From: Candidatus Latescibacterota bacterium | GTDB taxonomy: Bacteria > Latescibacterota > UBA2968 > UBA8231 | DNA length: 64,000 bases | Reading direction: 5' to 3' | Assembly: GCA_965208105.1 (NCBI GenBank) | Contig: OZ242318.1 | Span: forward strand, 3,840,001-3,904,000 | Shown here: positions 10,583 to 50,713 of the stretch, piece after piece | Position numbering within the stretch: the stretch's first letter is position 1 | Layout of the letters: every line of letters begins with the position of its first letter | Notes under the pieces: generated by a model | What the model was told of the DNA's origin: nothing | The model's input: only the letters and a program-made list of their open reading frames with translations | The model's database searches: none | Position numbers and translations under genes: made by a program

Positions 10583-11986
10583 ATGACCAACCAGATTATT
10601 CATGCCCGTTCCCGCCGCCTGTTGATTTTCGTAGGCGTCGCTCTTTTGGTTCACGGCGTGTTGGTGGTGGCCATTACCTACCGCGAAGTGTTGGAGCGGC
10701 CTGAGCCCGTGCTGTCGGGCAAGTTCGTCAAGCGCCGGCCCTTGCAGCAGCCGTATCTGGAGCGCCGGGTCGAGCGGCCTGCGCCCCTGCCTGTCCTCAA
10801 GCGTTCGGTGACCGCCTCGCGTCCCTATGCGCGCTCGGCGGTTCAGTACACCCTTGCCCCGGTTCATCCCCAACTGCTCGGCGCCCGGCTCGAGGTGCCG
10901 GAGCTGCCGCCGCGCCCACTCTCTTTGGCCAGGGGCCTTCCCTCCAGCGGGCGTTTGCGCTCCCTTCCCACCGAGGTGTCGGTGCAGGCGGCGGATCACC
11001 TGGATCTGGGGCTGGAGTTGCTGGACATCGACCATCTGGATACGGGTCGCTACCGGGCCCTGGTGGTGCAGGATCCGGCTGACCGCCGCAATCTGGAAGG
11101 GTACGTGCACTTTTCGGCGGTGGCCATTCCCTCGGTGCGGCGCATGGAGGGCGAGGACTGGGGCCCGTATCCGGCACAGGCCTTAGCGCGCAGTGTGGAT
11201 CGCCATAGTGCCGTTTTACCCGATTTCCGCCACAGCGCCAACATCCGCGCCCTGGCGTCCCTGGCGGCTGAACTGGAGGAGCAGACGGGGTTGAAGGCGG
11301 TGTTGGACGAGGATCTGGACTTGCAGTCGCCGGCGGTGCTGGAGAGTCCGTTCATCCTGCTGACCAGCGGCCGCCGGTTCGAGCCGAGCGCGGAGGAGGC
11401 GGAGCAACTGGGCAGGTATCTGGTGTCGGGCGGGTTCGCCTACGTGGAGCAGGTAGGCGCGCCGGTGCTGGAGTTTTTGCATGGCACCTTCCGGGATCTG
11501 CACTCCCTGCGGGACTTGATTCGCATGGCCCTGGCAAGCCAGGGTTTGAGTGAGGGTACGGACTGGAGTTTCGAGCCCCTGGATGGCGACCATCCCCTGT
11601 TTCACAGTTACTATGATATCGACACCTTGCCGACCAACTACTGGCGGGCGGTTTACTCCGATGTGTTCGGTTATCACTCTAGGCATCCGCAAGATTGGGG
11701 CTTCCGATCTGATCCGACTTACGAGGGAATCCCGCCCTATTTGGAGGGAATTCACCTGAATGGCCGCCTGGTGCTGGTCTATTCACAGCAGAACTTCCGC
11801 GATTTCTGGCGCCGGCGTCCGGAGCGTCATTTGACCCGGGCGTCGGAGGTATTCATTTGGGATCTCAATGAGTCTCCTCTCCACCGTCCCAGCAGCGATC
11901 CGGCGATCCGGCTGGGGATCAACGTGGTGGTGTTCGCGCTGACCCAGGAAGGGTCGCTGGCGCGGCGCTATGTCAAGGCGAGGTAA
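10583..11986 (+). CDS. Membrane-anchored DUF4159-domain protein (copy D1)
   Basis: N-terminal TM helix, Pro/Arg-rich linker; DUF4159-type motifs L-RYL-SGGF, HPLFHSYYD, LEGI-L-GRL, LGINVVVFALTQEGS. Confidence 0.82.
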   Translation: MTNQIIHARSRRLLIFVGVALLVHGVLVVAITYREVLERPEPVLSGKFVKRRPLQQPYLERRVERPAPLPVLKRSVTASRPYARSAVQYTLAPVHPQLLGARLEVPELPPRPLSLARGLPSSGRLRSLPTEVSVQAADHLDLGLELLDIDHLDTGRYRALVVQDPADRRNLEGYVHFSAVAIPSVRRMEGEDWGPYPAQALARSVDRHSAVLPDFRHSANIRALASLAAELEEQTGLKAVLDEDLDLQSPAVLESPFILLTSGRRFEPSAEEAEQLGRYLVSGGFAYVEQVGAPVLEFLHGTFRDLHSLRDLIRMALASQGLSEGTDWSFEPLDGDHPLFHSYYDIDTLPTNYWRAVYSDVFGYHSRHPQDWGFRSDPTYEGIPPYLEGIHLNGRLVLVYSQQNFRDFWRRRPERHLTRASEVFIWDLNESPLHRPSSDPAIRLGINVVVFALTQEGSLARRYVKAR

Positions 11987-11989
11987 ATC

Positions 11990-13675
11990 ATGATACTGAG
12001 GTGGCTCGCACTGGTCCTCCTCCTGCTGCGCCAGGGGGCGGCGGACCAGTGGGTGACCGTCGGCGCCGAGGACTTCGCCAAAGGGACCCTCAAAGGGGTG
12101 GAGGTCTCGCCTTCGGGAAAGCTGCGCCTGACCTTTTTCGAAGGAGCAAACCTGGCTCTGAAAATGGCGGCCAGGTCAGAGACCGGGGAGATCGTCCGCT
12201 CCTTCAGCGTTACCGACGGCAACCTTGCCACCGAATGGGATTTCGGCGGCAAGGCCCAGGTCATGGGCCGGACCATCGAGATTGATCTGGGCAGCAACCG
12301 CCTCGTCACCGGGGTGCGTATTCTACCCGGCAGTAAGTTGGGAAAACAGTATCCACAGTTCTATGTCAAGGGTTACCGCATCGACGTTGCCGCCGCCGAC
12401 GCCCCCGACCTCTGGATTCCGGTGGCCCAGAATCTCCTCAACCAGAACCGCTCCATCGACACCACCCTCGACCACACCTGGATGGAATTGGAGGAAGGTG
12501 CGCCCAAGCCTGTTGTTGCCCGCTACGTCCGCGTTACCGTAACGCGAGAGGATCCGCCCAACTGGGTGATCGTCGGTGAGGTGGAGGTCTACGGCACCGG
12601 ATTCACGTCCGCAGGTGAGTATACCTCGCTCCCCTACGAATTGGACTCCGAGATCTCCCATGCCAACCTGGGCACCTTGTTCTGGCGCGCAGAAGTGCCG
12701 GCTGGAACCAGGCTGAGCTGGCAGATTATTGCTTTGCGCCAGTTGCGTGCACAGCCCGATTGGAAAAGTGCACCGCTGATCGAATCAGAAGACGGCAGTG
12801 CCGGTATCGATTTGCGGTTGGAAGAGCGCGCCCGCTACGTGTGGTACAGGGTTTTGTTCGAGTCGGTCGATTCCCGCCTCAGCCCGGAACTGGAAGAGGT
12901 GGTGATCTCCTTCGATCAGAGCCTGATCGCCACTACCGCCCGCGGTTCGGTCGAGCCCCGGAGGGTAGCGGCGGGGGAGCCGGTGTCCCTTACCTACAAG
13001 GCCACCATAGGGGTCCGGCCCCATGACCACGGCGTGGATCTGCTGGTTCTCAACCGCTGGGGCGAGCTGGAGGAGCTATTGATCGACGGAACGAGAGTTC
13101 CACCAGGCGGGTATGAGATCATCGGCGACGAGTTCTCGGGTCAGAGGCCGAATCTTGCCCTGCGTCTGCACCCGGACTATCGCATTGGAGGTCGCGCGGA
13201 AATAGAGTTGAGGTTCACCACCGCGTTCCTCAAGGGGGCGGAGTTGGTGACCCTTTCCCTCGGGACTCTCGCGGAGGGAGCGGACCAGACCAACTTTCAG
13301 AAGGTCACCCTGCAGTTTTGGAATAGTACCCTGGTTGCCGTTTCCGGGGCCATGGAAAGCGTCCTGACCCCGTCCAGCGTGCGCTTCGTCCCCCGGATTT
13401 TCCGACCAGGCCCCGGTGGTGGTACCCAGCTTCACTTCGATCTGGCCAGGGTGCGGGTGCCGGTGCCGGTGAGCGTGGCTATCTTCGATCTTTCCGGGAG
13501 GCGCGTCCGTACCCTGATGGACGACACCCTGCTACAGTCGGGCCCCATTCTTGTCCCCTTTGACGGCTATGACGCCCGCGGCAGGGTGTTGCCGCCTGGC
13601 ATTTACCTGTGCCGCATCGAGGTCAGTGCTCAGCGCAAATTTACCGTGCTTCGCACACTCGGCATAGCCTATTGA
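11990..13675 (+). CDS. Secreted protein with discoidin (F5/8C)-like and C-terminal FlgD Ig-like domains (copy F1)
   Basis: Signal peptide; DGN--TEW, IDLG, ARYVRV, EVEVYG; C-terminal IFDLSGRRVRTL...DG-D--GR-LPPGIY-CRI...GIAY. Confidence 0.8.
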   Translation: MILRWLALVLLLLRQGAADQWVTVGAEDFAKGTLKGVEVSPSGKLRLTFFEGANLALKMAARSETGEIVRSFSVTDGNLATEWDFGGKAQVMGRTIEIDLGSNRLVTGVRILPGSKLGKQYPQFYVKGYRIDVAAADAPDLWIPVAQNLLNQNRSIDTTLDHTWMELEEGAPKPVVARYVRVTVTREDPPNWVIVGEVEVYGTGFTSAGEYTSLPYELDSEISHANLGTLFWRAEVPAGTRLSWQIIALRQLRAQPDWKSAPLIESEDGSAGIDLRLEERARYVWYRVLFESVDSRLSPELEEVVISFDQSLIATTARGSVEPRRVAAGEPVSLTYKATIGVRPHDHGVDLLVLNRWGELEELLIDGTRVPPGGYEIIGDEFSGQRPNLALRLHPDYRIGGRAEIELRFTTAFLKGAELVTLSLGTLAEGADQTNFQKVTLQFWNSTLVAVSGAMESVLTPSSVRFVPRIFRPGPGGGTQLHFDLARVRVPVPVSVAIFDLSGRRVRTLMDDTLLQSGPILVPFDGYDARGRVLPPGIYLCRIEVSAQRKFTVLRTLGIAY

Positions 13676-13766
13676 GCAGGAGGGAACCGCTGAAAGGTTT
13701 GCATATCTTCAATCAAGGACTCGAAACTGTGCCTCGTACTGCGCCCGATGCAGGGAGGTAGAAATC

Positions 13767-14273
13767 ATGATCAGGTGTCTGTTATGGACATGTTTGTCGA
13801 TCTTTCTTTTGCACTGCTCTCGTCAGGGCAAGAATCCTCTGCCCCTGACCCCGACCATGGCTATCCCGGACCATGATCTCGAGGCCACATACTTAGAGTT
13901 TCGGACTGATCCGCGCGAAGATCCTACCACTGCCTTTCGTGTGGGGCAGGACGTGTGGGTGCGTTTCGCCATAAGCAACGTCGGAGTGCGCCCTGTACGA
14001 AGGAAAGACTTTAACTATTCTCTGCACCAAAATGATACAATCATCCAGCACGCCCTGACGGAGCGGGGGACCTGGCCAATCTATGATGGCCCCCAACTGG
14101 CGCCTGGGGACCAATATGAAATTTGGAAGTCGCCCCCCTATTCCCGTGAATGGACCTTTACGCAGAATCCAGGCACCTATGAGCTCAAGCTGGAAGTATT
14201 TCTGCACCCTCGGTACGATGAGCAGTTCACAGACGACAACGTTTTCATCCTGACGGTCGAAGTGAAGGAATAG
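13767..14273 (+). CDS. Putative CARDB-like lipoprotein (copy L2)
   Basis: Paralogue of 10059-10565; lipobox-like LLHC; RBS GGGAGG. Confidence 0.8.
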   Translation: MIRCLLWTCLSIFLLHCSRQGKNPLPLTPTMAIPDHDLEATYLEFRTDPREDPTTAFRVGQDVWVRFAISNVGVRPVRRKDFNYSLHQNDTIIQHALTERGTWPIYDGPQLAPGDQYEIWKSPPYSREWTFTQNPGTYELKLEVFLHPRYDEQFTDDNVFILTVEVKE

Positions 14274-14290
14274 ATGAGAGCACAGACCGG

Positions 14291-15697
14291 ATGACCAACC
14301 AGATTATTCATGCCCGTTCCCGCCGCCTGTTGATTTTCGCAGGCGTCGCTCTTTTGGTTCACGGCGTGTTGGTGGTGGCCATTACCTACCGCGAAGTGTT
14401 GGAGCGGCCTGAGCCCGTGCTGTCGGGCAAGTTCGTCAAGCGCCGGCCCTTGCAGCAGCCGTATCTGGAGCGCCGGGTCGAGCGGCCTGCGCCCCTGCCT
14501 GTCCTCAAGCGTTCGGTGACCGCCTCGCGTCCCTATGCGCGCTCGACGGTTCAGTACACCCTTGCCCCGGTTCACCCCCAACTGCTCGGCGCCCGGCTCG
14601 AGGTGCCGGAGCTGCCGGCGCGCCCACTCTCATTGGCCAGGAGCCTTCCCTCCAGCGGGCGTTTGCGCTCCCTTCCCACCGAGGTGTCGGTGCAGGCGGC
14701 GGATCACCTGGATCTGGGGCTGGAGTTGCTGGACATCGACCATCTGGATACGGGTCGCTACCGGGCCCTGGTGGTGCAGGATCCGGCTGACCGCCGCAAT
14801 CTGGAAGGGTACGTGCACTTTTCGGCGGTGGCCATTCCCTCGGTGCGGCGCATGGAGGGCGAGAACTGGGGACCGACTACCCTGCCGGGCTTGGCGCGCG
14901 CTGTGGATCGCGAGATAGCCATTTTTCCAGATTTGCGCCACAGCGCCAACATCCGCGCCCTGGCGTCCCTGGCGGCTGAACTGGAGGAGCAGACGGGATT
15001 GAAGGCAGTGTTGGACGAGGATCTGGACTTGCAGTCGCCGGCGGTGCTGGAGAGTCCGTTCATCCTGCTGACCAGTGGCCGCCCGTTCGAGCCGAGCGCG
15101 GAGGAGGCGGAGCAACTGGGCAGGTATCTGGTGTCGGGCGGGTTCGCCTACGTGGAGCAGGTGGGTGCGGAGTATCCGGAGTGGAAGCATGGCTCCTTCC
15201 GCGATCTGCACTCTCTGCGGGACTTGATTCGCATGGCCCTGGCAAGCCAGGGTTTGGGGGAAGGCGTGGACTGGAGTTTCGAGCCCCTCGATGGCTACCA
15301 TCCCCTGTTTCACAGTTACTACGACATCGGCACCTTGCCGACCAGCTACTGGAGGGCGATTTGGGCAAATGTTTTTGGTGAGGCCAGTGGGGTAGCTCAG
15401 GGGACGCTTGAACCGTCGCCGACCTTTGAGGGCATCCCGCCCTATCTCGAAGGCATCCACCTGGATGGCCGCCTCGTGCTGGTCTATTCGCAGCAGAACT
15501 ACCGTGATTTCTGGTGGCGGCGTCCGGAGCGCCATTTGACCCGAGCGGCGGAGACCCTGATATGGGATTTCAACCAGTCTCCGCTCCACCGTCCGAGCAG
15601 CGATCCGGCGATCCGGCTGGGGATCAACGTGGTGGTGTTCGCGCTGACCCAGGAGGGATCGTTGGCTAGGCGCTACGTCAAGCGCGGTAATTCATGA
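14291..15697 (+). CDS. DUF4159-domain protein (copy D2)
   Basis: Near-identical to D1 outside variable patches. Confidence 0.82.
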   Translation: MTNQIIHARSRRLLIFAGVALLVHGVLVVAITYREVLERPEPVLSGKFVKRRPLQQPYLERRVERPAPLPVLKRSVTASRPYARSTVQYTLAPVHPQLLGARLEVPELPARPLSLARSLPSSGRLRSLPTEVSVQAADHLDLGLELLDIDHLDTGRYRALVVQDPADRRNLEGYVHFSAVAIPSVRRMEGENWGPTTLPGLARAVDREIAIFPDLRHSANIRALASLAAELEEQTGLKAVLDEDLDLQSPAVLESPFILLTSGRPFEPSAEEAEQLGRYLVSGGFAYVEQVGAEYPEWKHGSFRDLHSLRDLIRMALASQGLGEGVDWSFEPLDGYHPLFHSYYDIGTLPTSYWRAIWANVFGEASGVAQGTLEPSPTFEGIPPYLEGIHLDGRLVLVYSQQNYRDFWWRRPERHLTRAAETLIWDFNQSPLHRPSSDPAIRLGINVVVFALTQEGSLARRYVKRGNS

Positions 15698-15736
15698 TAC
15701 TCTGAGTCTCGCACGGTTTCCGTCCTTCTGCGGCAG
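15694..15736 (+). pseudogene. 5'-end scar of a deleted discoidin/FlgD gene
   Basis: atgatactctgagtctcgcacggtttccgtccttctgcggcag aligns with the starts of F1 (11990) and F2 (18451) at the same position after DUF4159. Confidence 0.6.
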
Positions 15737-15872
15737 CATAAGAAAAAAGTGCGAGTAAGAAGACATTCAATTTATGCGGGGATTCCCCTTTTGTCCGGCT
15801 GGGCTGTGCAACCTGTTCTTCAGAGATTCTGTTTCGTGAATTGTATTACACTTTGTGCCGAGAGAATTGCTT

Positions 15873-16381
15873 ATGATCAGGTATATTTTGTTGGCATGTT
15901 TTCATTTTCTTCTTTTTCACTGCGCCCGCGAAGGAGAGAATCCCCTGCCCATAGAGCCCATCCAGATTCTCCCAGACTACGATCTTGAGGCAACGTCCTT
16001 AGAATTCCGGATTGATCCTGAAAAGGCCCTACCACTGCCTTTCGCGTGGGCCAAGACGTGTGGGTGCGTTATGTAATAAAGAACCTTGGATTGCAAACTG
16101 TATCCATGAGAGCCAATTCATATTCCTTGCGCCAAAATGAAAAACTCGTCAGGTCGGCCGTGGATGAGTGGGGGGTTTGGCACGGCCTAAGAGGCTCGCC
16201 ACTGGCGTCTGGAGACTCACTGAGGTTAGGGCTCTCTCCCCCATATTCCTCCCGTGAATGGACCTTCACGGAACAGCCCGGCATCTATGAACTCAAGTTG
16301 AAAGTCTTTCTACATCCTCGGTACGAGGAGGAGAACAAAGACAACAACCAATTTACCGTGACGGTCGAGGTGAGAGAGTAG
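15873..16381 (+). pseudogene. Frameshifted CARDB-like lipoprotein (copy L3)
   Basis: ORFs 15873-16076 and 16046-16381 join into a full L1/L2 paralogue if one base is restored in the A-run at 16021-16024. Confidence 0.8.
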
Positions 16382-16436
16382 TACAGATGAGGATCGGATG
16401 AAAATCCGCGAGATTCGGAAACGCTCTCAGCGCTGG

Positions 16437-16916
16437 ATGGAAAAACCGGCATTGCTGGCATGCCTGTCGGTTTTTTTTCTGTGCTGTTCACGTGCCGGCG
16501 AAAACCCTTTGCCGATCGAACCCCTTCTTCCCCGTTCCGAGTACGACCTGGAAGCGTCGGAATTAAAGATCCAGAATCAACAAGGTGGACCGCATAGACC
16601 GAGGATAAAAATAGGCGCAGATGTCTGGATCTTTACCAGTATATGCAACGTGGGACTACAGCCCATCCCTGGCGCGTACTACGGAGAGTCTCTGGAGGTA
16701 AACGGCAAAATCGTACACCGGCATTCATTAGGTGTATATTCATCTTTTGGACCATTGGCGCCTGGAGGATGCAACAAAGGGGCGGTAAGTTTATCGCGGA
16801 TGCCGGAGGAGCCGGGTCGATACGAGTTCAAGTTCCAAGTGCATCTCTCTTCCAGGCTTGAGGAGGAGAACAAGGACAACAATGAGTTGGTGTTGGTAGT
16901 CGAAGTGGAACAATAG
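16437..16916 (+). CDS. Putative CARDB-like lipoprotein (copy L4); ORF extends upstream to 16398
   Basis: FFLCC lipobox-like, GENPLPIEP, YDLEA, NVG, PLAPG, EEENKDNN. Confidence 0.78.
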   Translation: MEKPALLACLSVFFLCCSRAGENPLPIEPLLPRSEYDLEASELKIQNQQGGPHRPRIKIGADVWIFTSICNVGLQPIPGAYYGESLEVNGKIVHRHSLGVYSSFGPLAPGGCNKGAVSLSRMPEEPGRYEFKFQVHLSSRLEEENKDNNELVLVVEVEQ

Positions 16917-16989
16917 GCACGCTCGATTGCGGGCAGTGCGCTCGCGGACGGAGGCCGGCAAACGCTTCCAAGGGCTCCAGGGGCACGGC

Positions 16990-17028
16990 GGCAACCTATT
17001 CACCCTTACGGTCGAGGTGAAAGACTAG
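16990..17028 (+). pseudogene. 3'-end scar of another CARDB-like lipoprotein gene
   Basis: Encodes GNLFTLTVEVKD*, homologous to the L1 end DNVFTLTVEVKE*. Confidence 0.65.
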
Positions 17029-17044
17029 TGAGGATGAGGATCGA

Positions 17045-18454
17045 ATGAGAAACCGCAAAATGCGGGGTCGCACTCAGCGCTGGTGGTTTTTCATCGGCGT
17101 CGCTCTCCTGGTTCACGGCGTGTTGGTGGTGGCCATTACCTACCGCGAAGTGTTGGAGCGGCCTGAGCCCGTGCTGTCGGGCAAGTTCGTCAAGCGCCGG
17201 CCCTTGCAGCAGCCGTATCTGGAGCGCCGGGTCGAGCGGCCTGCGCCCCTGCCTGTCCTCAAGCGTTCGGTGACCGCCTCGCGTCCCTATGCGCGCTCGA
17301 CGGTTCAGTACACCCTTGCCCCGGTTCATCCCCAACTGCTCGGCGCCCGGCTCGAGGTGCCGGAGCTGCCGGCGCGCCCCCTCTCATTGGCCAGGGGCCT
17401 TCCCTCCAGCGGGCGCTTGCGCTCCCTTCCCACCGAGGTGTCGGTGCAGGCGGCGGATCATCTGGATCTGGGGCTGGAGTTGCTGGACATCGACCATCTG
17501 GATACTGGTCGCTACCGGGCCCTGGTGGTGCAGGACCCTGCTGACCGCCGCAATCTGGAAGGGTACGTGCACTTTTCGGCGGTGGCCATTCCCTCGGTGC
17601 GGCGCATGGAGGGCGAGGACTGGGGCCCGTGGACGTGGGAGTCCATAGCGCGCAGCGTGGATCGGGAGATGTCCACATTTCCCGATTTGCTCCACAGCGC
17701 CAATATCCGCGCCCTGGCGTCCCTGGCGGCTGAACTGGAGGAGCAGACGGGGTTGAAGGCGGTGTTGGACGAGGATCTGGACTTGCAGTCGCCGGCGGTG
17801 CTGGAGAGTCCGTTCATCCTGCTGACCAGCGGCCGCCCGTTCGAGCCGAGCGTGGAGGAGGCGGAGCAACTGGGCCGATACCTGGCGTCGGGCGGGTTCG
17901 CCTACGTGGAGCAGGTGGGCGCGCCGTGGCCGGAGCTTCAGCAAGGCACCTTCCGCGACCTGCACTCCCTGCGCGACCTGATTCGCATGGCCCTGGCAAG
18001 CCAGGGCTTGAGTGAGGGTACGGACTGGAGTTTCGAGCCCCTTGGTCACGACCATGCCCTGTTTCACAGTTACTACGACATCGAAACCCTGCCCACCAAC
18101 TACTGGCGAGCAATCTGGGCAGATGTGAGTGGTCTTAGGGCGGTGGGAGTGGCTAGTGGAGGGCTTACACCGTCGCCGACTTTCGAGGGAATCCCGCCCT
18201 ATTTGGAGGGGATTCACCTGGATGGCCGCCTGGTGCTGGTCTATTCGCAGCAGAACTACCGTGATTTCTGGTGGCGGCGTCCGGAGCGCCATTTGACCCG
18301 AGCGGCCGAGCCCCTGATATGGAACTTCAATGAATCTCCGCTCCACCGTCCGAGCAGCGATCCGGCGATCCGGCTGGGGATCAACGTGGTGGTGTTCGCG
18401 CTGACCCAGGAGGGATCGTTGGCTCGTCGCTACGTCAAGCGGGGCAAATCATGA
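17045..18454 (+). CDS. DUF4159-domain protein (copy D3)
   Basis: Near-identical to D1/D2 except N-terminus and variable patches; ATGA overlap with next gene. Confidence 0.82.
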   Translation: MRNRKMRGRTQRWWFFIGVALLVHGVLVVAITYREVLERPEPVLSGKFVKRRPLQQPYLERRVERPAPLPVLKRSVTASRPYARSTVQYTLAPVHPQLLGARLEVPELPARPLSLARGLPSSGRLRSLPTEVSVQAADHLDLGLELLDIDHLDTGRYRALVVQDPADRRNLEGYVHFSAVAIPSVRRMEGEDWGPWTWESIARSVDREMSTFPDLLHSANIRALASLAAELEEQTGLKAVLDEDLDLQSPAVLESPFILLTSGRPFEPSVEEAEQLGRYLASGGFAYVEQVGAPWPELQQGTFRDLHSLRDLIRMALASQGLSEGTDWSFEPLGHDHALFHSYYDIETLPTNYWRAIWADVSGLRAVGVASGGLTPSPTFEGIPPYLEGIHLDGRLVLVYSQQNYRDFWWRRPERHLTRAAEPLIWNFNESPLHRPSSDPAIRLGINVVVFALTQEGSLARRYVKRGKS

Positions 18455-20136
18455 TACCCTGGGGGCTGGCACTCCTCGCGGTCCTGGTGCGGCAGGGAGC
18501 GGCGGACCAGTGGGTGACCGCCGGCGCCGAGGACTTCGCCCTGGGGACCCTCGAAGGGGTGGAGGTCTCGGCCGCCGGCAGGTTGCGCCTGACCTCTTTC
18601 GAAGGGCTCAACTTGGCTTTGGATAGGGCGGCCAGGTCGGGCAGCCAGGAGCTGACTCGTTCCTTCAGCGTTACCGACGGTAACCTTAAAACCGAATGGA
18701 GATTCGACGGCCAAGCCCGGGTCATGGGCCGGACCATCGAGATCGATCTGGGCGGCAACCGACTCGTCAGCCGGGTGCGCATTCTTCCCGGCGGCAAGCT
18801 GGGGGAACTGAATCCACTGTTTTTTCTAAGGGGCTACCGCATTGACGTTGCCGCCGCCAACGCCCCCGACCTCTGGATTCCAGTGGCCGAGAATCTCCTC
18901 AACCAGAACCGCTTCATCGACACAACTCTCGACAACACCTGGATGGAATTCGAGCAGGGCGAGCCCAGGCCGGTCATGGCCCGTTACGTGCGTATAACAG
19001 TAACTCGGGAGGACCTGCCCAACTGGGTGATCGTCGGTGAGGTGGAGGTCTACGGCACCGGATTCAAGCCCGCCGGTGAATATGCCTCCCCCCCCTACGA
19101 AGTAGGCACCGAGGTCTCCCACGCCAACCTGGGCACCTTGATCTGGCGCGCCGATTTGCCGCCAGGGACCAAACTGAGCTGGCAGATCTATGCTTCGCGC
19201 CAGGAGGACCCACAACCCAAATGGGAGGAGATTCCCATCATTGAAAAAGGGGACGGCACCGCTGGTATCGATTTGCAGATGGAAGAACGCGCACGATACG
19301 TGTGGTACAGGGTTTTGTTCGAAACCGTCGATTCCCGCCTCAGCCCGGAGCTGGAAGAGGTGGTGATCACCTTCGACCGGAGCTTGATCGCCACTACGAC
19401 TTACGGTTCGGTCGAGCCCCGCCTAGTAGCGGCGGGGGAGCCGGTGTCCCTTACCTACAAGGCCACCATCGAGGTGGAACCCCAGGACTACGGGGTGGAT
19501 ATGCTCATTCTCAACCGCTGGGGCGAGCTCGAAGAGCTTTTGATCGACGGTACGAGGGTTCCACCCGGCGGGTATGAAATCATCGGCGACGAGGTCTCGG
19601 TGCAGAGGCCGAATATATCCCTGCGTCTGCACCCGGACTATCGCATTGAAGGCCGCGCCGAAATAGAGTTGAGGTTCACCACCGCGTTCCTCAAGGGACC
19701 CGAGGTGGTGACCCTTTTTCTCGGGACTTTCGCGGATGGAGCGGATCCGACAAACCTGCAGCCGGTTTCTCCGCAGTCAGCGGGAAGGACCCTGGTTGCC
19801 GTTTCCGGGACCACGGGAAGCGTCCTCTCCCAGTCCAGCGTGCGCCTCGACCCGCGGATTTTCCGACCCGGCCCCGGCGGAGGTACCCGGCTTCACTTCG
19901 ATCTGGCCAAGGTGTGGGTGCCGGTGCCGGTGAGCGTGGCCATCTTCGATCTCTCCGGGCGCCGCGTCCGCACTCTGTTGGAGGATGCCCTGCTGCAGTC
20001 GGGCCCCATTGTCGTCCCCTTTGACGGCTATGACGGCGGTGGTCGGGTGTTGCCTCCCGGCATTTACCTTTGCCGCATCAAGGTCAGGGCCCAACGCCCG
20101 GTGACCGTGCTTCGCACCCTCGGCATTGCCTACTGA
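18451..20136 (+). CDS. Discoidin/FlgD-Ig secreted protein (copy F2)
   Basis: 561 aa, colinear paralogue of F1, ends LRTLGIAY. Confidence 0.8.
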   Translation: MIPWGLALLAVLVRQGAADQWVTAGAEDFALGTLEGVEVSAAGRLRLTSFEGLNLALDRAARSGSQELTRSFSVTDGNLKTEWRFDGQARVMGRTIEIDLGGNRLVSRVRILPGGKLGELNPLFFLRGYRIDVAAANAPDLWIPVAENLLNQNRFIDTTLDNTWMEFEQGEPRPVMARYVRITVTREDLPNWVIVGEVEVYGTGFKPAGEYASPPYEVGTEVSHANLGTLIWRADLPPGTKLSWQIYASRQEDPQPKWEEIPIIEKGDGTAGIDLQMEERARYVWYRVLFETVDSRLSPELEEVVITFDRSLIATTTYGSVEPRLVAAGEPVSLTYKATIEVEPQDYGVDMLILNRWGELEELLIDGTRVPPGGYEIIGDEVSVQRPNISLRLHPDYRIEGRAEIELRFTTAFLKGPEVVTLFLGTFADGADPTNLQPVSPQSAGRTLVAVSGTTGSVLSQSSVRLDPRIFRPGPGGGTRLHFDLAKVWVPVPVSVAIFDLSGRRVRTLLEDALLQSGPIVVPFDGYDGGGRVLPPGIYLCRIKVRAQRPVTVLRTLGIAY

Positions 20137-25456: not shown

Positions 25457-28400
25457 ATGGTTCAACTGACCCTTGCCGCTATTTTCCTGGGAGCCGTTAG
25501 CGCCAGCATGTTCCACGATTCCCCCGGGGAGTTGGGCAAGGAATTCGACGCGGCGCAGAAGCTCATGGTGATGGGGGATTTTGACGGTGCCGTCGACGCC
25601 TACGAGGACCTCATAAATACCCCGTCTTCCTTGTTCCTGTTGCCTTCGCAGGTGAGAGTCGAGGTCCGAGGGGAAGGCCTGCTCCTCAGAGTGGCGGCGG
25701 CCTACCAGGTGGCCGGCAGCTACCGGCGCCGAGGTGAGGAGGAGCGCCAGAAGGACGACGACGGCGCCGCCGTCCGGGGACGTGAGTCCCTGCGCAAGGC
25801 GGCGCGATATTACAACCTGGTGAGCCGGGATTCGCTGGCTCCCGAAGATTTGCGCCAGCGCGCAGCCTACCAGGAGGGAAAATCCTATTTCATCGGCGAG
25901 GATTACGAGCAGGGCGCCGCCGCCTTCGAGAGTTTCCGCGATCGTTTCCCGCACGGAGAATACGCCCTCGACGCCCGCTATCACCTTGCCTGGTCCACCT
26001 ACAGGCTGGGATCGTGGGAGCGGGCTGCGGCGGAATTCCGCGCCGTGGCCGCGGCCGAGCCCGGCAGCGACAGGGCCCTCAGAGCCCTCTTTCAATTGGG
26101 CGAGTGTCTCGAGCGTCTGCAGCGCCGGGAAGAAGCCCTTGCTGCTTTCAGGCAACTTGCCCAACATTTCGATTCCAAGGTCTACGACGAGCGGCGCCGG
26201 GTTGAAGACCTCATGCTGGTGTTGCGCAAGGACTTTCTGGAAACCGAGCGGGAACTGATCGGCAAGGCGCACATCCGGGTGGGGGACGGCTATCGCCACC
26301 TCGATTCCCTGGAAACGGCCATGGAATGGTACCGCCGCGCGGCGCAGCGCTTTCCCACCGAGGGAGCCCTGGTGAAGACCGCCTATCTGCGTCTGGCCGA
26401 AATCCACGCCGATGAGAGACGCATCGACCCGGCCTTGACGGCCTACCGCACCGCCCTGGAGGAGGTGGTGGATCCACTCTTCCGGGCCCAGGTCCAGGCC
26501 GAGCTCATGATCCTGGCCCATGAAGCCGGGCGCTTCGAAGAATCGGCCGCCGCCCACCGGTTCTACATTCAGGCCTTCGGTGAACAGGCCGAAGAGACGG
26601 GGATTTCGGTGCAGCAGGCGCAGTTGCGGGTGGGCGAAGCGCTGCGCCAGGAAGCGCTGCGCCGGCACCGGGAAACGGAAGGGGATTCCCTCTACGGCGA
26701 AGCCCTGACGGCGTACCGGGAGTTGCTACGGATGAATCCCCCCGACAGCCTGGCGGCCGAGGCCCTGCTGGGCAGCGGGTTCTGCCTGCAGAGTCTGGGT
26801 GAGGGAGCTGCCGCCCGGGAGCAGTATGAAGCGGTTCGAGACAACTATGGCGCCACCCGGTCCGCCGCCTGGGCTCAACTGCAACTGGCGCGCATCCACT
26901 CCGAGGGCGGAGACTGGCCGGCGACCATGGCCTCGTACCAGTCACTGTTGCAGATCGGCGACGCCGAGCTGCGCGACATCGCCCGCGTCGAGCTGGCTCT
27001 GCTCCACCAGCGCCGCCGGGAAACGGGCGAAGCCCTGGCTCTGCTCCGCCCGATCGAGCCCGATTCTCCCGAGTTCAGCCGGGCCCAACTAGCTCTGGTG
27101 CGCCTGCATACGGCGAGCGGGGACTGGGAAGAGGCGCGGCAGGTCCTGATCCGCGCCAGGCAAGGGAAGGTCAGCCCCCCGGTGCGCGCCGAGCTCGATT
27201 ACACCGAAGCGGAGATCGCCTTCCAAGCCCGCGATTATGCCGCCACCCTCGAGCTCCTCGCCCGGGTGGATACCACCCTCTTGGAGGACCCTTTCGCCTA
27301 CGAACACCTCTATGTTCGCGGCGTATCCAGCTACCAGGTGGGCGACCATGCCGCCGCCCTCGAGCAGTTGGTTGCCTACTGCGGCCGATCACCTTTGCGC
27401 CGGGCGCGGCAGCAGGCCATCCGGCTGATCGGTCTGTGCCTGGCAGAAACCGTCGACCGGGATACCGCGGTGCGGCGCTTCCGCCGGTGGGCCGATGCCG
27501 GCGCCACCGACAGCGAGCGCCTGGAGTGGGAGCTGGGGCTGGCCCGCTTTCAGATCGACACTGGCCGCCATGCCGAAGCCCTGGAGTTGTTGGACCGGCT
27601 GGAAATGGTGTCGCCGGGTCAGCAGCAGGTGCTGCTGCTGCGGGGAATCGTGCGGATGGCGGCCAACGAGTGGGCTCCGGCGAGGGAGGTCCTCCTCGGC
27701 ATGGAGACCGACGGCCTCTCCGGCCCCGATGCTCATCGGCGGCTCTTCCTGCTTGGCGTGGCAGCGATGAATCTTGCCGACTATGGCGGGGCGGTAGAGC
27801 ATCTTCAGGAGTTGCTGGCTTTGAAGCCCCCTGAGGACATTTCCCGCCCCGCCCGGCTCTACCTGGGAAAAAGCTTCTTCGCTCTGAGACAGCACCGGGA
27901 GGCCGCTAAAACCTTGCTGCAATTGGCCGAGGACTTTGGGGGCCACGCGGAAGCCGGGGAAGCGGCCTATCTCGCCGGCGACAACCTCTACCTGATAGAA
28001 GACTATCGCGGGGCGGCAACGGCCTATGCCCGCGTCGAGCACGGAAAGTTCATGCCCGCCGCGGGGTTGGCCCGGGCCTGGTGCCTTCTGGAGCTGGAGG
28101 AAGAAGGACCCTTCCTGGAAGCGCTCGAGAACGTCCAAATCGACCATCCCCACAGCCCCGAGGCCCGCACCGCGGCCATGATGGCAGGCGATTACAATTA
28201 CAGCGGCAAAAAGTATGAGGCGGCGCGCCATGCGTACCGGACGCTCATGGAACAGTACCCCGACAGCGGCGAGGCCGCGCGGGCGCGGTCACGCCTGGTG
28301 GACCTCGAGGACCTGGAAGCCGATCGCCTCTACCAGGCGGCCATGGCCGCCTTCGACGGCGGCGACTACGAGGGCGCGCGGCGGCAGCTGGAGGCGGTGG

Positions 28401-28600
28401 CGCAGCGTTTTCCCGGCACCCTGTCGGAGATGGCGGCGCGCTGCAACATCGGGGTATGCTACGAGAAGACGGGACAGTGGCGCCGGGCCGCCGCCGTCTA
28501 CGACAGCCTGCTGCAGAGGGGGGAGGCCGATCCGCAGTACGGCGCCATGCTGCGCTTTGCGCGGGAGCACCGCGACTGGATTCGCGACTACCGACTCTAA
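25457..28600 (+). CDS. Exported tetratricopeptide-repeat protein (BamD/CpoB-like repeats)
   Basis: Signal peptide; many helical TPR-type repeats (A-Y-LAW, ALFQLG, ARLYLG, YPDS-EA). Confidence 0.85.
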   Translation: MVQLTLAAIFLGAVSASMFHDSPGELGKEFDAAQKLMVMGDFDGAVDAYEDLINTPSSLFLLPSQVRVEVRGEGLLLRVAAAYQVAGSYRRRGEEERQKDDDGAAVRGRESLRKAARYYNLVSRDSLAPEDLRQRAAYQEGKSYFIGEDYEQGAAAFESFRDRFPHGEYALDARYHLAWSTYRLGSWERAAAEFRAVAAAEPGSDRALRALFQLGECLERLQRREEALAAFRQLAQHFDSKVYDERRRVEDLMLVLRKDFLETERELIGKAHIRVGDGYRHLDSLETAMEWYRRAAQRFPTEGALVKTAYLRLAEIHADERRIDPALTAYRTALEEVVDPLFRAQVQAELMILAHEAGRFEESAAAHRFYIQAFGEQAEETGISVQQAQLRVGEALRQEALRRHRETEGDSLYGEALTAYRELLRMNPPDSLAAEALLGSGFCLQSLGEGAAAREQYEAVRDNYGATRSAAWAQLQLARIHSEGGDWPATMASYQSLLQIGDAELRDIARVELALLHQRRRETGEALALLRPIEPDSPEFSRAQLALVRLHTASGDWEEARQVLIRARQGKVSPPVRAELDYTEAEIAFQARDYAATLELLARVDTTLLEDPFAYEHLYVRGVSSYQVGDHAAALEQLVAYCGRSPLRRARQQAIRLIGLCLAETVDRDTAVRRFRRWADAGATDSERLEWELGLARFQIDTGRHAEALELLDRLEMVSPGQQQVLLLRGIVRMAANEWAPAREVLLGMETDGLSGPDAHRRLFLLGVAAMNLADYGGAVEHLQELLALKPPEDISRPARLYLGKSFFALRQHREAAKTLLQLAEDFGGHAEAGEAAYLAGDNLYLIEDYRGAATAYARVEHGKFMPAAGLARAWCLLELEEEGPFLEALENVQIDHPHSPEARTAAMMAGDYNYSGKKYEAARHAYRTLMEQYPDSGEAARARSRLVDLEDLEADRLYQAAMAAFDGGDYEGARRQLEAVAQRFPGTLSEMAARCNIGVCYEKTGQWRRAAAVYDSLLQRGEADPQYGAMLRFAREHRDWIRDYRL

Positions 28601-28627: not shown

Positions 28628-29284
28628 ATGGGCATAGATTCCTTCCTTCTCGATCAGTTTGACAAGGGCGGTCCGCTGATGTGGCCCCTGGCGCTGTGCT
28701 CGCTGACGGCGCTCACCGTCGGTCTGGAGCGCCTGTGGGTGCTGCTGCGGGTCCCGGGGGACGAGGGCGCCCGCGCCGAAATGGAGGCGGTTCTGGCGCG
28801 GAAGGAGGAGCTGGACGGGGCGGATCTTCTGGCCCACCTGCTGGAACGCAAGGGGGTGCTGGCGGCGGTCTACGCCGCGGTGCAGCGCAAGTATCTGGCG
28901 CTTTTGGAGGAAGGCCAGGGAGCGGCGGAGCAGCGCGCCGAGCTGGGTAGGGAGGCCAACGCGGCCTGCCGCGAGTATCTGGGCCAGTTTCTTCCGGTTC
29001 TGAGCACGATTGGCAGCATCGCGCCGCTGTTGGGTCTTCTGGGCACGATCACGGGGATGATCAAGGCCTTTGCGGCCATCGCCACGGCGGGGGTGGGGGA
29101 TCCGAGCCAGGTGGCCGACGGCATCTCGGAGGCGCTGATCACCACGGCGACGGGTCTGATCATCGCGATCCCGGTGATCGTGCTGCACCGCTACCTGGCG
29201 CTGCGCGCCGGCCGCGTCATGCGGCGCCTGGAGCTCTACACCCATGCCCTGGGCCACGCCCTGGTGGAGGAGGAGCGCCGGTGA
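28628..29284 (+). CDS. exbB: MotA/TolQ/ExbB proton channel family protein
   Basis: GGPLMWPL, APLLGLLGTITGMI-AF, GISEALITTA-GL-IAIP. Confidence 0.93.
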   Translation: MGIDSFLLDQFDKGGPLMWPLALCSLTALTVGLERLWVLLRVPGDEGARAEMEAVLARKEELDGADLLAHLLERKGVLAAVYAAVQRKYLALLEEGQGAAEQRAELGREANAACREYLGQFLPVLSTIGSIAPLLGLLGTITGMIKAFAAIATAGVGDPSQVADGISEALITTATGLIIAIPVIVLHRYLALRAGRVMRRLELYTHALGHALVEEERR

Positions 29285-29517
29285 ACATCTACGACGACGC
29301 CGGGGCCCCCGGCTCCACCGTGGAGCCTGGGCAGTTGGCCGAGGTCTTCAAGGAGGCGTCGGGTGAGGGCCGCGAAATCAGGCTGACCATTCTGGCCGAC
29401 CGCCGCACCCCCCACGGCCACACTCTGGAGGCCATGGAGGCGGCGCAGCGCGCCGGGATCCACCGGGTCTACCTGGCCACCAGGACCCGGCCTCCGGGAG
29501 AAGGGAGCGTACCGTGA
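29281..29517 (+). CDS. exbD: ExbD/TolR periplasmic domain only (no TM helix); possibly a pseudogene
   Basis: ILADRRTPHG...AM-AAQRAG...V-LAT motif directly after exbB with GTGA overlap; no TP-IDV TM segment. Confidence 0.65.
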   Translation: MNIYDDAGAPGSTVEPGQLAEVFKEASGEGREIRLTILADRRTPHGHTLEAMEAAQRAGIHRVYLATRTRPPGEGSVP

Positions 29518-30248
29518 CCAGGATGATCCCGGCCGTGATGGCGACGTGGCTGGGGGCTGCCGGCTGCGGTCTCTTGCCGGTGCCCAAATCCCACCTGGTG
29601 CGCCTTGCCTTCGTGCCCGGCGAGAGGGCGGCCTACTCCGTCGATGCGGCCGACAGCGCCGCGGTCTATCGCACCGAGGGCCTGGTCGTCAAGGTGAGCT
29701 ACCGCTCGAAGCAGGCCCTCAACCTGGAGTATCCCGACGCCCGCGAGGGCCGGGTCAATCTCAACCCCTTCACCTACGGCCCCCGCATGGACAACGATCT
29801 GGGCTACGCCCCGGACCGCTTCACCGTCTTCGAGGTGGACTTCAACAACATCGGCCGGCCCCGGGTTCAGTTTACCGCGCAGGACGCCGAGCTGGTCACC
29901 GACCGCGGCGACCGGCTGCGGCCCTGGGGCACGCAGAAGGGGGAGGCGGAGGACACCTTCGAGGAGTATTACCGCGCCCGGCGCGGCCCGGGGGGCAACG
30001 ACCAGCAGTGGTATCGGCAGCGTCTGGCCATCGTGGAGAAATCGCTCTACCGCGGTGACGGGCCCTTGTTCAAGGGTCAACGCCAGCGCGGCAAGCTGGT
30101 GTTCGGCCTTTTGCACCCGGAGGTGGCCTCGGTGCGCCTGCACCTGCGCGAGGTGGTCCTGGCCTTCGACGAGCACGGGCTGCCCACCGAGCGCATCGAT
30201 CTGGAGTTTCCCTTCGAGATCAGCGTCGAGGTCGAGGAGCTGGAGTGA
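29514..30248 (+). CDS. Hypothetical lipoprotein
   Basis: Lipobox AAGC; translationally coupled to exbD; host-like codon usage. Confidence 0.78.
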   Translation: MTRMIPAVMATWLGAAGCGLLPVPKSHLVRLAFVPGERAAYSVDAADSAAVYRTEGLVVKVSYRSKQALNLEYPDAREGRVNLNPFTYGPRMDNDLGYAPDRFTVFEVDFNNIGRPRVQFTAQDAELVTDRGDRLRPWGTQKGEAEDTFEEYYRARRGPGGNDQQWYRQRLAIVEKSLYRGDGPLFKGQRQRGKLVFGLLHPEVASVRLHLREVVLAFDEHGLPTERIDLEFPFEISVEVEELE

Positions 30249-30301
30249 GTTGGGCAGCAATGGCAACTGAAGCAAGCATCGGGAGAGTGTGGCGCTGGGC
30301 A

Positions 30302-30865
30302 ATGTGGAAAGATGAGAGATCGTTCTGGACCGGATCGTGCTTGCTATTCTGCTATGTAGTGGCACTAGGTCTGGCGGCCTGTACGCAAGAAGGCGAGAAT
30401 CCATCGCCTTTCGACATACAAAAGGGTAGTGTTCAGGAGCCATTTGACATTGCAGTCACCTATTTTACCTGGGACTCCAGAAAAATAACTTTGACCGACG
30501 ACAACAGCTATGCCGTAGAGGTCGTAAACGCAGGCACCGATACCCTGAACTTTTACAAGATCGAAATCTATTTTGACGATAACCTAAGGAATCGCTACGA
30601 GAACCGACCTGAGTTGCTGCACCCCGGTCCGCTGGTTCCGGGTGATACAGAGTGTTTAATATGGGCAAGTGGGTCGGGAAGCCCTCCCAGACCACCAAAG
30701 GAGCCTGGACGCCACAGCTACCGGGTAGTGGCCAGTCTGCCGAGCGGCTACGCTGAAATGAATCTCTCCAACAACGAACTTGTGGGCTTTTTCGAAATAA
30801 GTGCCAGTGCCAAACGGACGAATCTTTTTTCATCGAAGCCGCTGGTCGGATGTCGACGGTATTAG
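30302..30865 (+). CDS. Putative CARDB-like lipoprotein (copy L5)
   Basis: Lipobox LAAC, GENP, FDIAV, NAG, PLVPG, PGR-SY, E-NLSNN; start uncertain. Confidence 0.72.
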   Translation: MWKDERSFWTGSCLLFCYVVALGLAACTQEGENPSPFDIQKGSVQEPFDIAVTYFTWDSRKITLTDDNSYAVEVVNAGTDTLNFYKIEIYFDDNLRNRYENRPELLHPGPLVPGDTECLIWASGSGSPPRPPKEPGRHSYRVVASLPSGYAEMNLSNNELVGFFEISASAKRTNLFSSKPLVGCRRY

Positions 30866-30933
30866 GCCATTTGGGTGAGGAAGGGCTTTCTAGATTCGCC
30901 CAGTGACGTTTAAGAAGGAGAGATGTGGAGATC

Positions 30934-31479
30934 ATGTCCTGGACCGGATCGCGCTTGCTATTCTGCTATGTCCTGGCACTAGGTCTGGCTGGCTGTACGC
31001 GAGAAGGCGAGAATCCATCGCCTTTCGACATCCAAAAGGGTATTGTTCAGGAGCCGTTTGATATCGCCGTTACCTATTTTACCTGGGATTCCAGAAAGGT
31101 ACAGGGGGCCGACCTTGACGGCTATGGGGCAGAGGTCGAAAATGCCGGAACCGATACCCTTGACTTCTACAAGATCGAACTTTTTTTTGACGATAAGCTT
31201 GTTCATCGCCTTGAAAACCGGCCTGATTGGCATCCCGGTCCGCTGGCCCCGGGTGAAGAACACTGTAGAGGGTGGGGCAATGCGTGGGGAAACCCTCCCA
31301 ACAATGCACCGAAAGAACCAGGACGCTACAGCTACCGGGTAGTGGCCAGTTTACCGAGCCGCTACGCTGAAAAAAATCTCTCCAACAACGAACTTACCGG
31401 CTTTTTCGAGATAGGGGGCAGCTCCAAACCGGCGATTCTCTTTTCATCGAAGGCTCTGGTCGGATGCCGACGGTATTAG
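30934..31479 (+). CDS. Putative CARDB-like lipoprotein (copy L6), tandem duplicate of L5
   Basis: Lipobox LAGC; shares N- and C-terminal DNA with L5, both end LVGCRRY*. Confidence 0.75.
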   Translation: MSWTGSRLLFCYVLALGLAGCTREGENPSPFDIQKGIVQEPFDIAVTYFTWDSRKVQGADLDGYGAEVENAGTDTLDFYKIELFFDDKLVHRLENRPDWHPGPLAPGEEHCRGWGNAWGNPPNNAPKEPGRYSYRVVASLPSRYAEKNLSNNELTGFFEIGGSSKPAILFSSKALVGCRRY

Positions 31480-31612
31480 GCCATAGGGTAGGAAGGCCGG
31501 TGCTCGATTCGGCCGGTGGTGTTCAGAAAGACAGAAACCTGTCGTCGTTTGCAGCGCAGAGATTGGCCGACGGTTTTGAGGACCTCCATCAGCAACCATA
31601 CTTTGGGTTACC

Positions 31613-33004
31613 ATGAAAGGTGCTTGTCGATGGTTTTCCCTCGCGCCGCGCAACAGCCATCGGCGGTTGTGGTACTTCGTGATCCTTGCCCTGTTGGTAC
31701 ACGGAGTGCTGGTGGCAGTGATCACTGTTCGCACGCTGGAGCAGAACAGGGAGCGGGAGCTTTCGAGTCGTTTCGTCAAACGCCGACCACTGAAACAGCC
31801 CGTATTGAGGCGCCAGGTGGAACGGCCATTCCCGCTGCGCCCCATGCAGCGATCGATTCAGCCTTTCCTTCCTTTTACCCGCGCCATCGCGCAGCACACA
31901 CCCGATCCGAGACCTCCTGAACTCCTCGCTCACCGCGAGGCTGTCTCCTTGCCGCCGCGGCCGATGGGATTCCCCAGTGGTTTTCCCGCCTCGAGGAGCT
32001 TGCGCTCTGAGCCGTCCAAAGTGTCGGTGCAAGCGGAGAACTACCTGGACCTGGGATTGGAGTTGCTGGATGTGGAGGCGCTGGACACGGGACGCCATCG
32101 TGCGCTTGTAGTGGAAGATCCAATCGACCGCCGCAAGCTCAAAGGATTCGTCCATTTTTCAGCAGTACTGATAGAATCCGTATTCGAGAGCGCCGCCAAT
32201 CTGGGTCATTTCGCTCGAACCTCTGCTTATTCTGTGGACAGGCAAATTACCTATGTCCCCGATTGGCGTCATTCGGCCAACGTGAAAGCCCTTCAGGGCC
32301 TGGCGAGCGAGATAGAGGAAAAAACCGGGCTCAAGGCAGTGGTGGACGAGGACATAAGTCTGGATGCTTCCGAACTGCTGTCCAGCCCCTTCATCCTGCT
32401 CACCAGCACTCACGAGTTCGAACCGACCGAGGGGGAAATCAACAACCTGGGCCGCTACCTTACTTCCGGAGGGTTCGCCTACGTCGAGCAAGTGGGTACG
32501 AATAGAGAAGGATGGACATCCGGTAGTTTCCCCGAGCTGATTTCCCTTCGCCACCTGGTGGGTCGCGCTCTAGCCAGTCGGGGTCTTCGCGAAGGAAAGG
32601 ACTGGAGTTTTGAACCGTTGACCGGCGAGCATCCGCTATTTGCAGCGTATTATAGTCTGCACAGGGTGCCGACAAGCTACTGGGAATCCATTTACAGACC
32701 TCCTGACCATGTGGGCCATAGTCGCCATACGCCAAGGACCGCAGATATACCGCCCTACGTTGAAGGAGTACATTTGAACGGTCGTCTGGTCGCGATATAC
32801 TCCAGGCAGAACTACAGGGATTTCTGGTACCGGCGTCCCGAGCAGAATCTGACCAACGCATCGGACTACGTGCTGTCGAACTTTGTAGATGTTGCCACTC
32901 ACAAACCCAGCAGCGATCCCGCCATTCGATTCGGGATCAATGTGGTCGTGTTTGCTCTGACACAGGAAGGTTCCCTTGCCCGACGATATGTCAGAGCGCG
33001 GTAA
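31613..33004 (+). CDS. DUF4159-domain protein (divergent copy D4)
   Basis: Same architecture: ALLVHG TM, FVKRRPL, LDTGR, FGINVVVFALTQEGS. Confidence 0.82.
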   Translation: MKGACRWFSLAPRNSHRRLWYFVILALLVHGVLVAVITVRTLEQNRERELSSRFVKRRPLKQPVLRRQVERPFPLRPMQRSIQPFLPFTRAIAQHTPDPRPPELLAHREAVSLPPRPMGFPSGFPASRSLRSEPSKVSVQAENYLDLGLELLDVEALDTGRHRALVVEDPIDRRKLKGFVHFSAVLIESVFESAANLGHFARTSAYSVDRQITYVPDWRHSANVKALQGLASEIEEKTGLKAVVDEDISLDASELLSSPFILLTSTHEFEPTEGEINNLGRYLTSGGFAYVEQVGTNREGWTSGSFPELISLRHLVGRALASRGLREGKDWSFEPLTGEHPLFAAYYSLHRVPTSYWESIYRPPDHVGHSRHTPRTADIPPYVEGVHLNGRLVAIYSRQNYRDFWYRRPEQNLTNASDYVLSNFVDVATHKPSSDPAIRFGINVVVFALTQEGSLARRYVRAR

Positions 33005-33016
33005 GGCCGCAGCACA

Positions 33017-34705: not shown

Positions 34706-34707
34706 GG

Positions 34708-50624: not shown

Positions 50625-50713
50625 GCCGGCTCCTTTTGTGAGGGGTCTGGCGACGCCCTCCCACGCCCGCTTTTCCAAGATGCTGGAATCAGATTGGGCG
50701 AGGAGAAATAACA

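Follow-up and report, generated by a model that had tools for sequence, protein, structure and literature searches.

Interlocus gene conversion that leaves divergent islands in otherwise homogenised tandem paralogues is reported for the major histocompatibility complex (MHC) class I genes (PMC1397804) and for tandem HMA4 paralogues (bioRxiv 10.1101/2025.10.29.685298). The locus described here lies in a window of 64,000 nucleotides from a Candidatus Latescibacterota bacterium (assembly GCA_965208105.1, contig OZ242318.1, positions 3,840,001 to 3,904,000), and contains three tandem genes, D1, D2 and D3, that encode proteins with a DUF4159 domain. As in these cases of concerted evolution, the framework is homogenised, short segments are divergent and the two partitions yield conflicting trees. 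Unlike MHC class I and HMA4, the D genes encode bacterial envelope proteins and form two separate arrays in one genome. The evolutionary pattern is already known; the DUF4159 family is unstudied, and its ExbB/ExbD context is new. Within the literature open to a full-text search, DUF4159 appeared only in the Pfam 2016 database paper, and the searchable text of a paper on sponge Latescibacterota (PMC12993501) made no mention of TonB, ExbB, discoidin, gene conversion, tandem or paralog. The array provides a clean bacterial case of mosaic concerted evolution, with synonymous contrasts, a tree conflict and an internal replicate.

D1, D2 and D3 matched the Pfam DUF4159 model (PF13709) with 65.6, 59.1 and 60.9 bits, and a fourth gene, D4, with 65.3 bits (cut-off 25.9). 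The proteins D1, D2 and D3 were 86–88% identical. Their codon alignment had 469 real columns, of which 329 were identical (6 all-gap columns being left out of this figure), 59 differed synonymously only and 81 carried a residue change or an indel. The longest base-identical tracts measured 221 and 205 nt between D1 and D2, 220 nt between D2 and D3, and 191 nt between D1 and D3. The first 17 residues of D3 were unlike those of D1 and D2; over residues 18–464, 54 of the 66 variable columns fell inside five patches, the variable regions VR1, VR2, VR2b, VR3 and VR4 (Table 1), which span 87 of 448 columns, and none of 10,000 random placements matched this clustering. D4 was 61% identical to D1–D3 in the framework and 34–39% in the patches. 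The initial annotation had described near base-identity broken by four patches, at which D4 was also most divergent. This contrast was real, the VR1–VR4 peptides quoted at the time agreed exactly with the alignment, and D4 behaved as stated; the set of patches was incomplete, a small fifth one lying at residues 322–339, and near base-identity held over the 5′ half, encoding the transmembrane (TM) helix and linker, but not over the framework of the DUF4159 domain.

Synonymous (dS) and non-synonymous (dN) divergence was calculated by the Nei–Gojobori method. The sister species, genome G001, has a single gene of the D1–D3 clade, in the order D-F-X1-X2-TPR, and is therefore syntenic with the third cassette of the array, a cassette being made up of a lipoprotein gene (S) and a D gene, plus a gene for a lectin-like protein (F) in two of the three cassettes. 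Framework dS in the N-terminal half (TM helix and linker) was 0.02–0.07 among D1–D3 and 0.25–0.31 to the G001 orthologue; in the domain half it was 0.20–0.24 and 0.37–0.43, respectively. In the patches, dS was 0.58–0.63 among D1–D3 and 0.52–0.65 to the orthologue, dN was 0.34–0.42 and 0.32–0.41, and the divergence of paralogue pairs was indistinguishable from that of paralogue–G001 pairs (Fisher p = 0.3–0.7). Between the window genome and G001, the TPR, X2, X1 and F3 genes differed at dS 0.24–0.35. F1 and F3, which were duplicated in one segment with D1 and D3, differed at dS 0.39, and F1 fell outside F3 and the G001 F gene (dS 0.43 vs. 0.33); the duplication therefore dates from roughly the time of the species split. 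D1 and D3 differed at a dS of 0.06 in the N-terminal half, and against the F1/F3 pair the difference was strong both for the N-terminal half of the D1/D3 pair (Fisher p = 9e-11) and for the whole framework (p = 6e-8). Between S1 and S2, dS was 0.67 in the 5′ part of the gene and fell to 0.03 in the 3′ part, a drop that marks the edge of a conversion tract. Silent differences were found in 24 of 95 framework codons at most 10 codons from a patch vs. 8 of 137 beyond 40 codons, with 1 of 10,000 permutations as strong, as would follow from conversion tracts ending there. The converted part was thus closer between paralogues than to the orthologue, and the co-duplicated flanks and spared parts were older, as in concerted evolution. 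The synonymous divergences date the duplication to about the time of the sister-species split or before it, and indicate that the D genes have since been repeatedly overwritten by interlocus conversion. Judged by the same values, homogenisation went furthest in the first 600 bp from the 5′ end (TM helix and linker) and was only partial within the domain, and VR1, VR2, VR2b, VR3 and VR4 escaped it, keeping ancient copy-specific sequence.

Phylogenetic analysis gave conflicting histories for patches and framework. The foreign protein P0122, encoded on a 316-kb contig, bore D1-type patches, with 81% patch identity to D1 against 49–51% between D1 and D2 or D3; framework identity was 95% between D1 and P0122 and 97–98% between D1 and D2 or D3. 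The patch tree joined D1 and P0122 with support of 99/100 and rejected a clade of the genome's own copies (approximately unbiased test, p-AU 0.017), whereas the framework tree recovered that clade with support of 93/95. Patch types were kept across orthologues at 81–100% identity (D2 with P0002 and with P0125, 99–100%; the P0007 group, 93–99%; D1 with P0122, the 81% already given). The G001 locus was the only close relative among seven loci on genome contigs, and there was none among seven on metagenome contigs. A second tandem pair in the same genome, D5 and D6, located 0.73 Mb away and 86% identical, repeated the pattern, with dS of 0.10 in the N-terminal half, 0.42 in the domain half and 0.61 in the patches (patch dN 0.31). 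Half of its differing residues (30/60) fell within the patches predefined on D1–D3, although these make up just 86 of the 447 columns (p = 4e-9). In other tandem sets of the family the patches diverged about 3 times faster than the framework (e.g., 90–93% vs. 73–79%), compared with a ratio of 16–25 in D1–D3, and the patches were gap-rich positions against distant homologues (gap fractions 0.3–0.8). Family-wide alignments thus mark the same islands as fast-evolving, indel-prone insertions on the DUF4159 core.

Possible recombinants were also found. P0001 was of D3 type at residues 2–17 and 196–216, and of D1 type at residue 110 and from residue 265 on; P0123 was of D3 type at residues 2–17 and of D1 type after; and a single 875-nt contig of run X7 was of S2 type until position 14198 and of cassette-1 type from there. 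Among the S/D-region variants listed, 18 of 20 equalled the base of a paralogue. P0001, P0123 and the run X7 contig are the combinations that conversion predicts, and are suggestive only, because short-read or k-mer assemblies could switch paths across identical stretches of 100–220 nt.

Other histories could produce the near-identical framework. If the D genes had been triplicated recently and the patches had then diverged very fast under positive selection, without conversion, this would agree with the single gene of the D1–D3 clade in G001 and with a patch dN of 0.32–0.42 that stands at a ratio far above 1 to a framework dS of 0.12–0.14. Such a history is improbable, as dS was also raised in the patches and in the neighbouring framework codons, F and the 5′ end of S were far older than the D framework, P0122 combined D1-type patches with ancestral framework states, and D2- and D3-type patches resembled P0004 and P0005. 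Identical blocks might also arise during assembly through collapse or polishing of paralogues, near-identical repeats being error-prone in metagenomes and the chimeric relatives P0001 and P0123 coming from short-read contigs. The initial annotation had named such an artefact among the findings that would undo its reading; it was not borne out, and is very improbable. The genome is a single 4.85-Mb contig, and D5 and D6 show the same pattern. Read-level evidence consisted of Logan contigs, each covering part of the array. In run X1, contig k-mer depth was 24.8 over the shared framework vs. 9–13 in the unique flanks, which fits about three true copies; in run X4, from another sample and another study, depth was present in 30 of 30 bins; and a run X8 contig covering positions 17512–18025, with two differences, joined VR1 and VR2 of D3.

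As to the patches, one reading accepts conversion in the framework and takes the patches as unconstrained loops, whose differences would be neutral and without copy-specific function. Pooled patch dN/dS was 0.53–0.75, patch dN was about equal to the between-species framework dS, a level compatible with near-neutral change or with constraint and selection acting together, and the patches are indel-prone, with a low predicted local distance difference test (pLDDT) value for VR3. The patch types conserved among orthologues argue against pure neutrality, as do VR1, VR2 and VR4, which were predicted as helices with block pLDDT of 79–98 in the AlphaFold2 (AF2) model, VR3 alone being low. Neutrality also offers no reason for the sparing of patches in two independent arrays, though termination of the tracts could; overall, this reading is unlikely. 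Programmed hypervariation was considered as well, since in the D proteins, as in targets of diversity-generating retroelements (DGRs), variable stretches with sharp limits interrupt a conserved scaffold, and on the surface these recall the variable regions of DGRs or the minicassettes of pilins. Unlike DGR targets, they lacked a template repeat, a nearby reverse transcriptase and adenine-specific changes, and both the DGR and the silent-cassette forms of this reading were ruled out, with a probability close to nil. No second copy of patch DNA occurred anywhere in the genome, the sole reverse transcriptase gene lay at 509,620, 3.3 Mb off, the changes affected all four bases (A at 15–19 of the 78–87 differing positions) and included indels, and every copy was full-length with its own upstream S gene. 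As in antibody complementarity-determining regions (CDRs), several short variable segments are set in a constant fold, but the variation in D is germline, ancient and fixed per gene, not somatic. Of the two processes proposed in the initial annotation, homogenisation of the framework by gene conversion agreed with the dS contrast, the tree conflict, the silent differences near patches and the D5/D6 replicate, whereas a CDR-like active diversification drew no support from the patch dN/dS, which did not exceed 1, and there was no mutator (no DGR). The patches have the look of old sequence that was kept, not of recent products, and the divergence data did not demonstrate them as DIVERSIFYING.

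Structural prediction divided D1 into a TM helix at about residues 14–33 with His24, a disordered Pro/Arg-rich linker at residues 40–139 (16 Pro per 100 residues) and a DUF4159 domain at about residues 150–460. His24 was kept in at least 90% of 106 homologues. The N-terminus of D is basic, and the positive-inside rule predicts a periplasmic position for the DUF4159 domain. PDB 4i66 (Hoch_4089 of Haliangium ochraceum), which is the sole DUF4159 structure to have been solved, represents the same domain as in the D proteins: the AF2 model of D1 (pLDDT 80.5) matched it in Foldseek with E = 1.3e-10 and a target TM-score of 0.74, and the profile match had E = 2.6e-17. The 4i66 structure is a core of about 200 residues. 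D extends it by the N-terminal TM helix and a linker of 100 residues, has VR1 before the aligned part, and carries 17 more residues at VR3 and 5 more at VR2. The models thus depict D as anchored in the inner membrane by a single TM helix, with a Pro-rich linker across the periplasm and a flavodoxin/GATase1-like DUF4159 domain at its end. His341 and Asp345 were conserved besides the nearly invariant His337; VR2b adjoins the latter, so at least one patch flanks a conserved site. The aromatic content of the patches was weakly raised (0.14–0.21 vs. 0.13). Each D copy probably has its own binding specificity via the patches; for a domain family without known function, this points to the residues that are the likeliest determinants of specificity.

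The D genes are linked to genes for ExbB and ExbD. In this genome, all eight DUF4159 genes lay <20 kb from an ExbB gene. Across six related genomes, each of one or two contigs and picked for comparable coordinates, 23 of the 35 DUF4159 genes listed lay <20 kb from ExbB where 1.3 were expected, and 17 of 31 ExbB genes had a DUF4159 neighbour among the matches listed, to which 59 further DUF4159 matches do not belong. Five ExbB genes were present in the window genome: one was accompanied by two ExbD genes and by the sole TonB_C (PF03544) gene over the cut-off, at 2164054, and three lay in DUF4159-F-X loci with ExbD and without TonB_C. The TM helix of TonB carries an SHLS-type motif with a His. 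Like the TonB and TolA transducers of ExbB/ExbD and TolQ/TolR, the D proteins have one N-terminal TM helix with a conserved His, a Pro-rich linker that would span the periplasm, a C-terminal globular domain and exbB/exbD neighbours. Unlike them, they have no TonB_C domain (absent from D1–D4 in Pfam) and no detectable homology, and their C-terminal fold is flavodoxin/GATase1-like. The D proteins are therefore not members of the TonB family; given the His-bearing TM anchor, the Pro-rich linker and the linkage to exbB/exbD, they may work like TonB, and a TonB/TolA-like role is plausible. The X proteins of the locus were predicted to be all-beta. They had 47 fold-search matches at E ≤0.001 with low TM-scores of 0.1–0.4, and those among the rows listed were all outer-membrane barrels except one low-probability row; X proteins are predicted to be large outer-membrane β-barrels.

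Taken together, it is probable that the cassettes are old, that conversion has homogenised the D framework around ancient copy-specific patches, and that D works with an ExbB/ExbD envelope system. The patches would be surface elements that determine specificity, and copies would stay distinct either through selection against converted patches or through tracts halting at diverged sequence. Judging from linkage, the D proteins may act with the ExbB/ExbD motor of the locus, the outer-membrane barrels and the secreted lectin-like proteins. On this view the homogenised TM helix and linker would engage a motor common to all copies, and the patches would be directed at partners or ligands that differ from copy to copy. 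A bolder version, in which DUF4159 membrane proteins form a new class of TonB/TolA-like, ExbB/ExbD-powered periplasmic transducers, with exchangeable patches around a conserved His/Asp site and each copy with its own barrel, lectin or ligand, is doubtful. If it were true, the sharing of one motor by tandem copies would explain the concerted evolution of TM helix and linker, and this Latescibacterota family would have an envelope system for uptake or secretion that is modular and diversifiable. The multi-copy DUF4159 genes, linked to ExbB/ExbD in loci without TonB, offer a concrete, testable idea for the role of DUF4159, and hint at how a poorly known Latescibacterota family builds its envelope machinery.

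Several observations weigh against the favoured account of conversion, copy-specific patches and an ExbB/ExbD partnership. The dS estimates are imprecise in the multi-hit codons of the patches, and silent differences clustered only marginally near patches in the domain half alone (519 of 10,000 permutations). The framework data failed to reject the patch topology significantly (p-AU 0.09), and P0122 and P0001–P0007 are proteins from short-read metagenome contigs, compared at the protein level. Pooled patch dN/dS was below 1, giving no sign of positive selection, and relaxed constraint could add to patch divergence. Patch similarity (D1/D2 51%, D2/D3 61%) did not track that of the S proteins (S1/S2 82%, S3 36–38%), so S is no obvious co-evolving partner. 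A complex prediction of the D1 domain (residues 140–467) with mature S1 (residues 18–168) scored 0.00 against a mark of 0.32, a result that counts neither way on binding. The ExbD-like open reading frame (ORF) of the window matched positions 71–126 of the 128 of the model only, and was without the N-terminal TM part. The D N-terminus had no Pfam match to TonB at E up to 10, and a phmmer search with D1 residues 1–80 against 1.84 billion representatives gave eight matches, of which the placeable ones belonged to the D family. Three of the eight were among the D1 homologues and P0194 (1205 aa) was unexplained; none of the eight was scanned for domains.

Table 1 Features of the DUF4159 array and its flanks in the window
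Feature	Position	Strand	Remarks
S1, small lipoprotein, 168 aa	10059..10565	+	lipobox; weakly CARDB-like; stops 17 nt before D1 start
D1, DUF4159 protein, 467 aa	10583..11986	+	predicted TM helix, linker, periplasmic domain
VR1 of D1	11165..11230	+	residues 195–216; predicted helix 198–206; N-terminal to part aligning with PDB 4i66
VR2 of D1	11459..11488	+	residues 293–302; right after strand 285–290; predicted helix 295–300
VR2b of D1, minor fifth patch	11546..11599	+	residues 322–339; variable DGD/DGY/GHD just before nearly invariant His337
VR3 of D1	11648..11722	+	residues 356–380; length-variable, low pLDDT; 17-residue insertion vs. 4i66
VR4 of D1	11840..11872	+	residues 420–430; predicted helix 422–427
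F1, secreted F5/8 type C (discoidin) protein	11990..13675	+	C-terminus FlgD-Ig/type IX secretion system (T9SS)-tail-like
S2, lipoprotein	13767..14273	+	82% identity to S1
D2, DUF4159 paralogue, 468 aa	14291..15697	+	no F gene behind
F 5′-end remnant, ~40 nt	15698-15736	+	behind D2
Pseudo-S, S-type gene with stops	15873..16381	+	intact orthologue P0142 in another genome
S3, lipoprotein	16398..16916	+	36–38% identity to S1
D-gene 5′-end remnant	16398-16436	+	first 13 codons of S3
S-gene 3′-end remnant	16989..17027	+	directly upstream of D3; start of homology with cassette 1
D3, DUF4159 paralogue, 469 aa	17045..18454	+	positional orthologue of the single G001 (sister species) gene
F3, F5/8 type C protein	18451..20136	+	77% identity to F1
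X1 protein, ~880 aa	20126-22783	+	no Pfam family
X2 protein, ~880 aa	22793-25429	+	no Pfam family
Tetratricopeptide repeat (TPR) protein	25457..28600	+	YbgF/BamD-like repeats
ExbB	28628-29284	+	
ExbD-like ORF	29281-29517	+	truncated
S4a, fourth cassette	30245-30865	+	
S4b, fourth cassette	30925-31479	+	
D4, fourth cassette	31613-33004	+	
F4, fourth cassette	33017-34705	+	
X, fourth cassette	34639-37356	+	

The gene remnants in the array (Table 1) are relics of lost cassettes and marks of past recombination. The family of S lipoproteins was tiny, with six proteins found among 5.8 billion. S genes were also tandemly multiplied: D4 and D5 were each preceded by two of them and D6 by four (for D5 and D6, at genome positions 4580080–4585225). 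Between F1 and F3, dN/dS was raised to 0.64 in alignment columns 57–112, which lie within or close to the F5/8 type C domain, and to 0.83 in columns 449–504, at a low dS of 0.15. The X family had about 40 paralogues in the genome (tblastn), with an Asp-rich, calcium-site-like stretch and an aromatic C-terminus, and its nearest named Atlas cluster was DUF6029, which is TonB-dependent-receptor-like (score 0.89).

Elsewhere in the genome, ExbD was full-length and present in two copies at both paralogous loci (4.59 Mb and 1.79 Mb). A distant but similar locus at 1772263–1793478 held a DUF4159 gene (1776611), two F-like and three X-like genes, an ExbB gene and a pair of ExbD genes; among canonical DUF4159 genes, the one with the highest score (1804898) lay 12.6 kb from the ExbB gene of this locus. 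DUF4159 copies numbered 4–16 per genome in the family of the window, f1, and 1–2 in the other families of the class (G000–G040, among the matches listed), and by these counts the expansion is specific to the f1 lineage.

The stretch was present in 15 runs from 7 studies, labelled as sponge or marine metagenomes or with two coded organism names; no RNA run was listed among them. Scans of the window for promoters, terminators and inverted repeats gave nothing above chance. One Logan contig of run X1, at a depth of 25.7, touched both F1 (position 12403) and D3 (position 17787), the two parts being separated by 34 unrelated letters; its source may be another organism or a repeat. The G+C content fell to 0.56, 0.57 and 0.47 at window positions 30001–34000, 48001–52000 and 60001–62000, respectively, against a background of 0.60–0.69.

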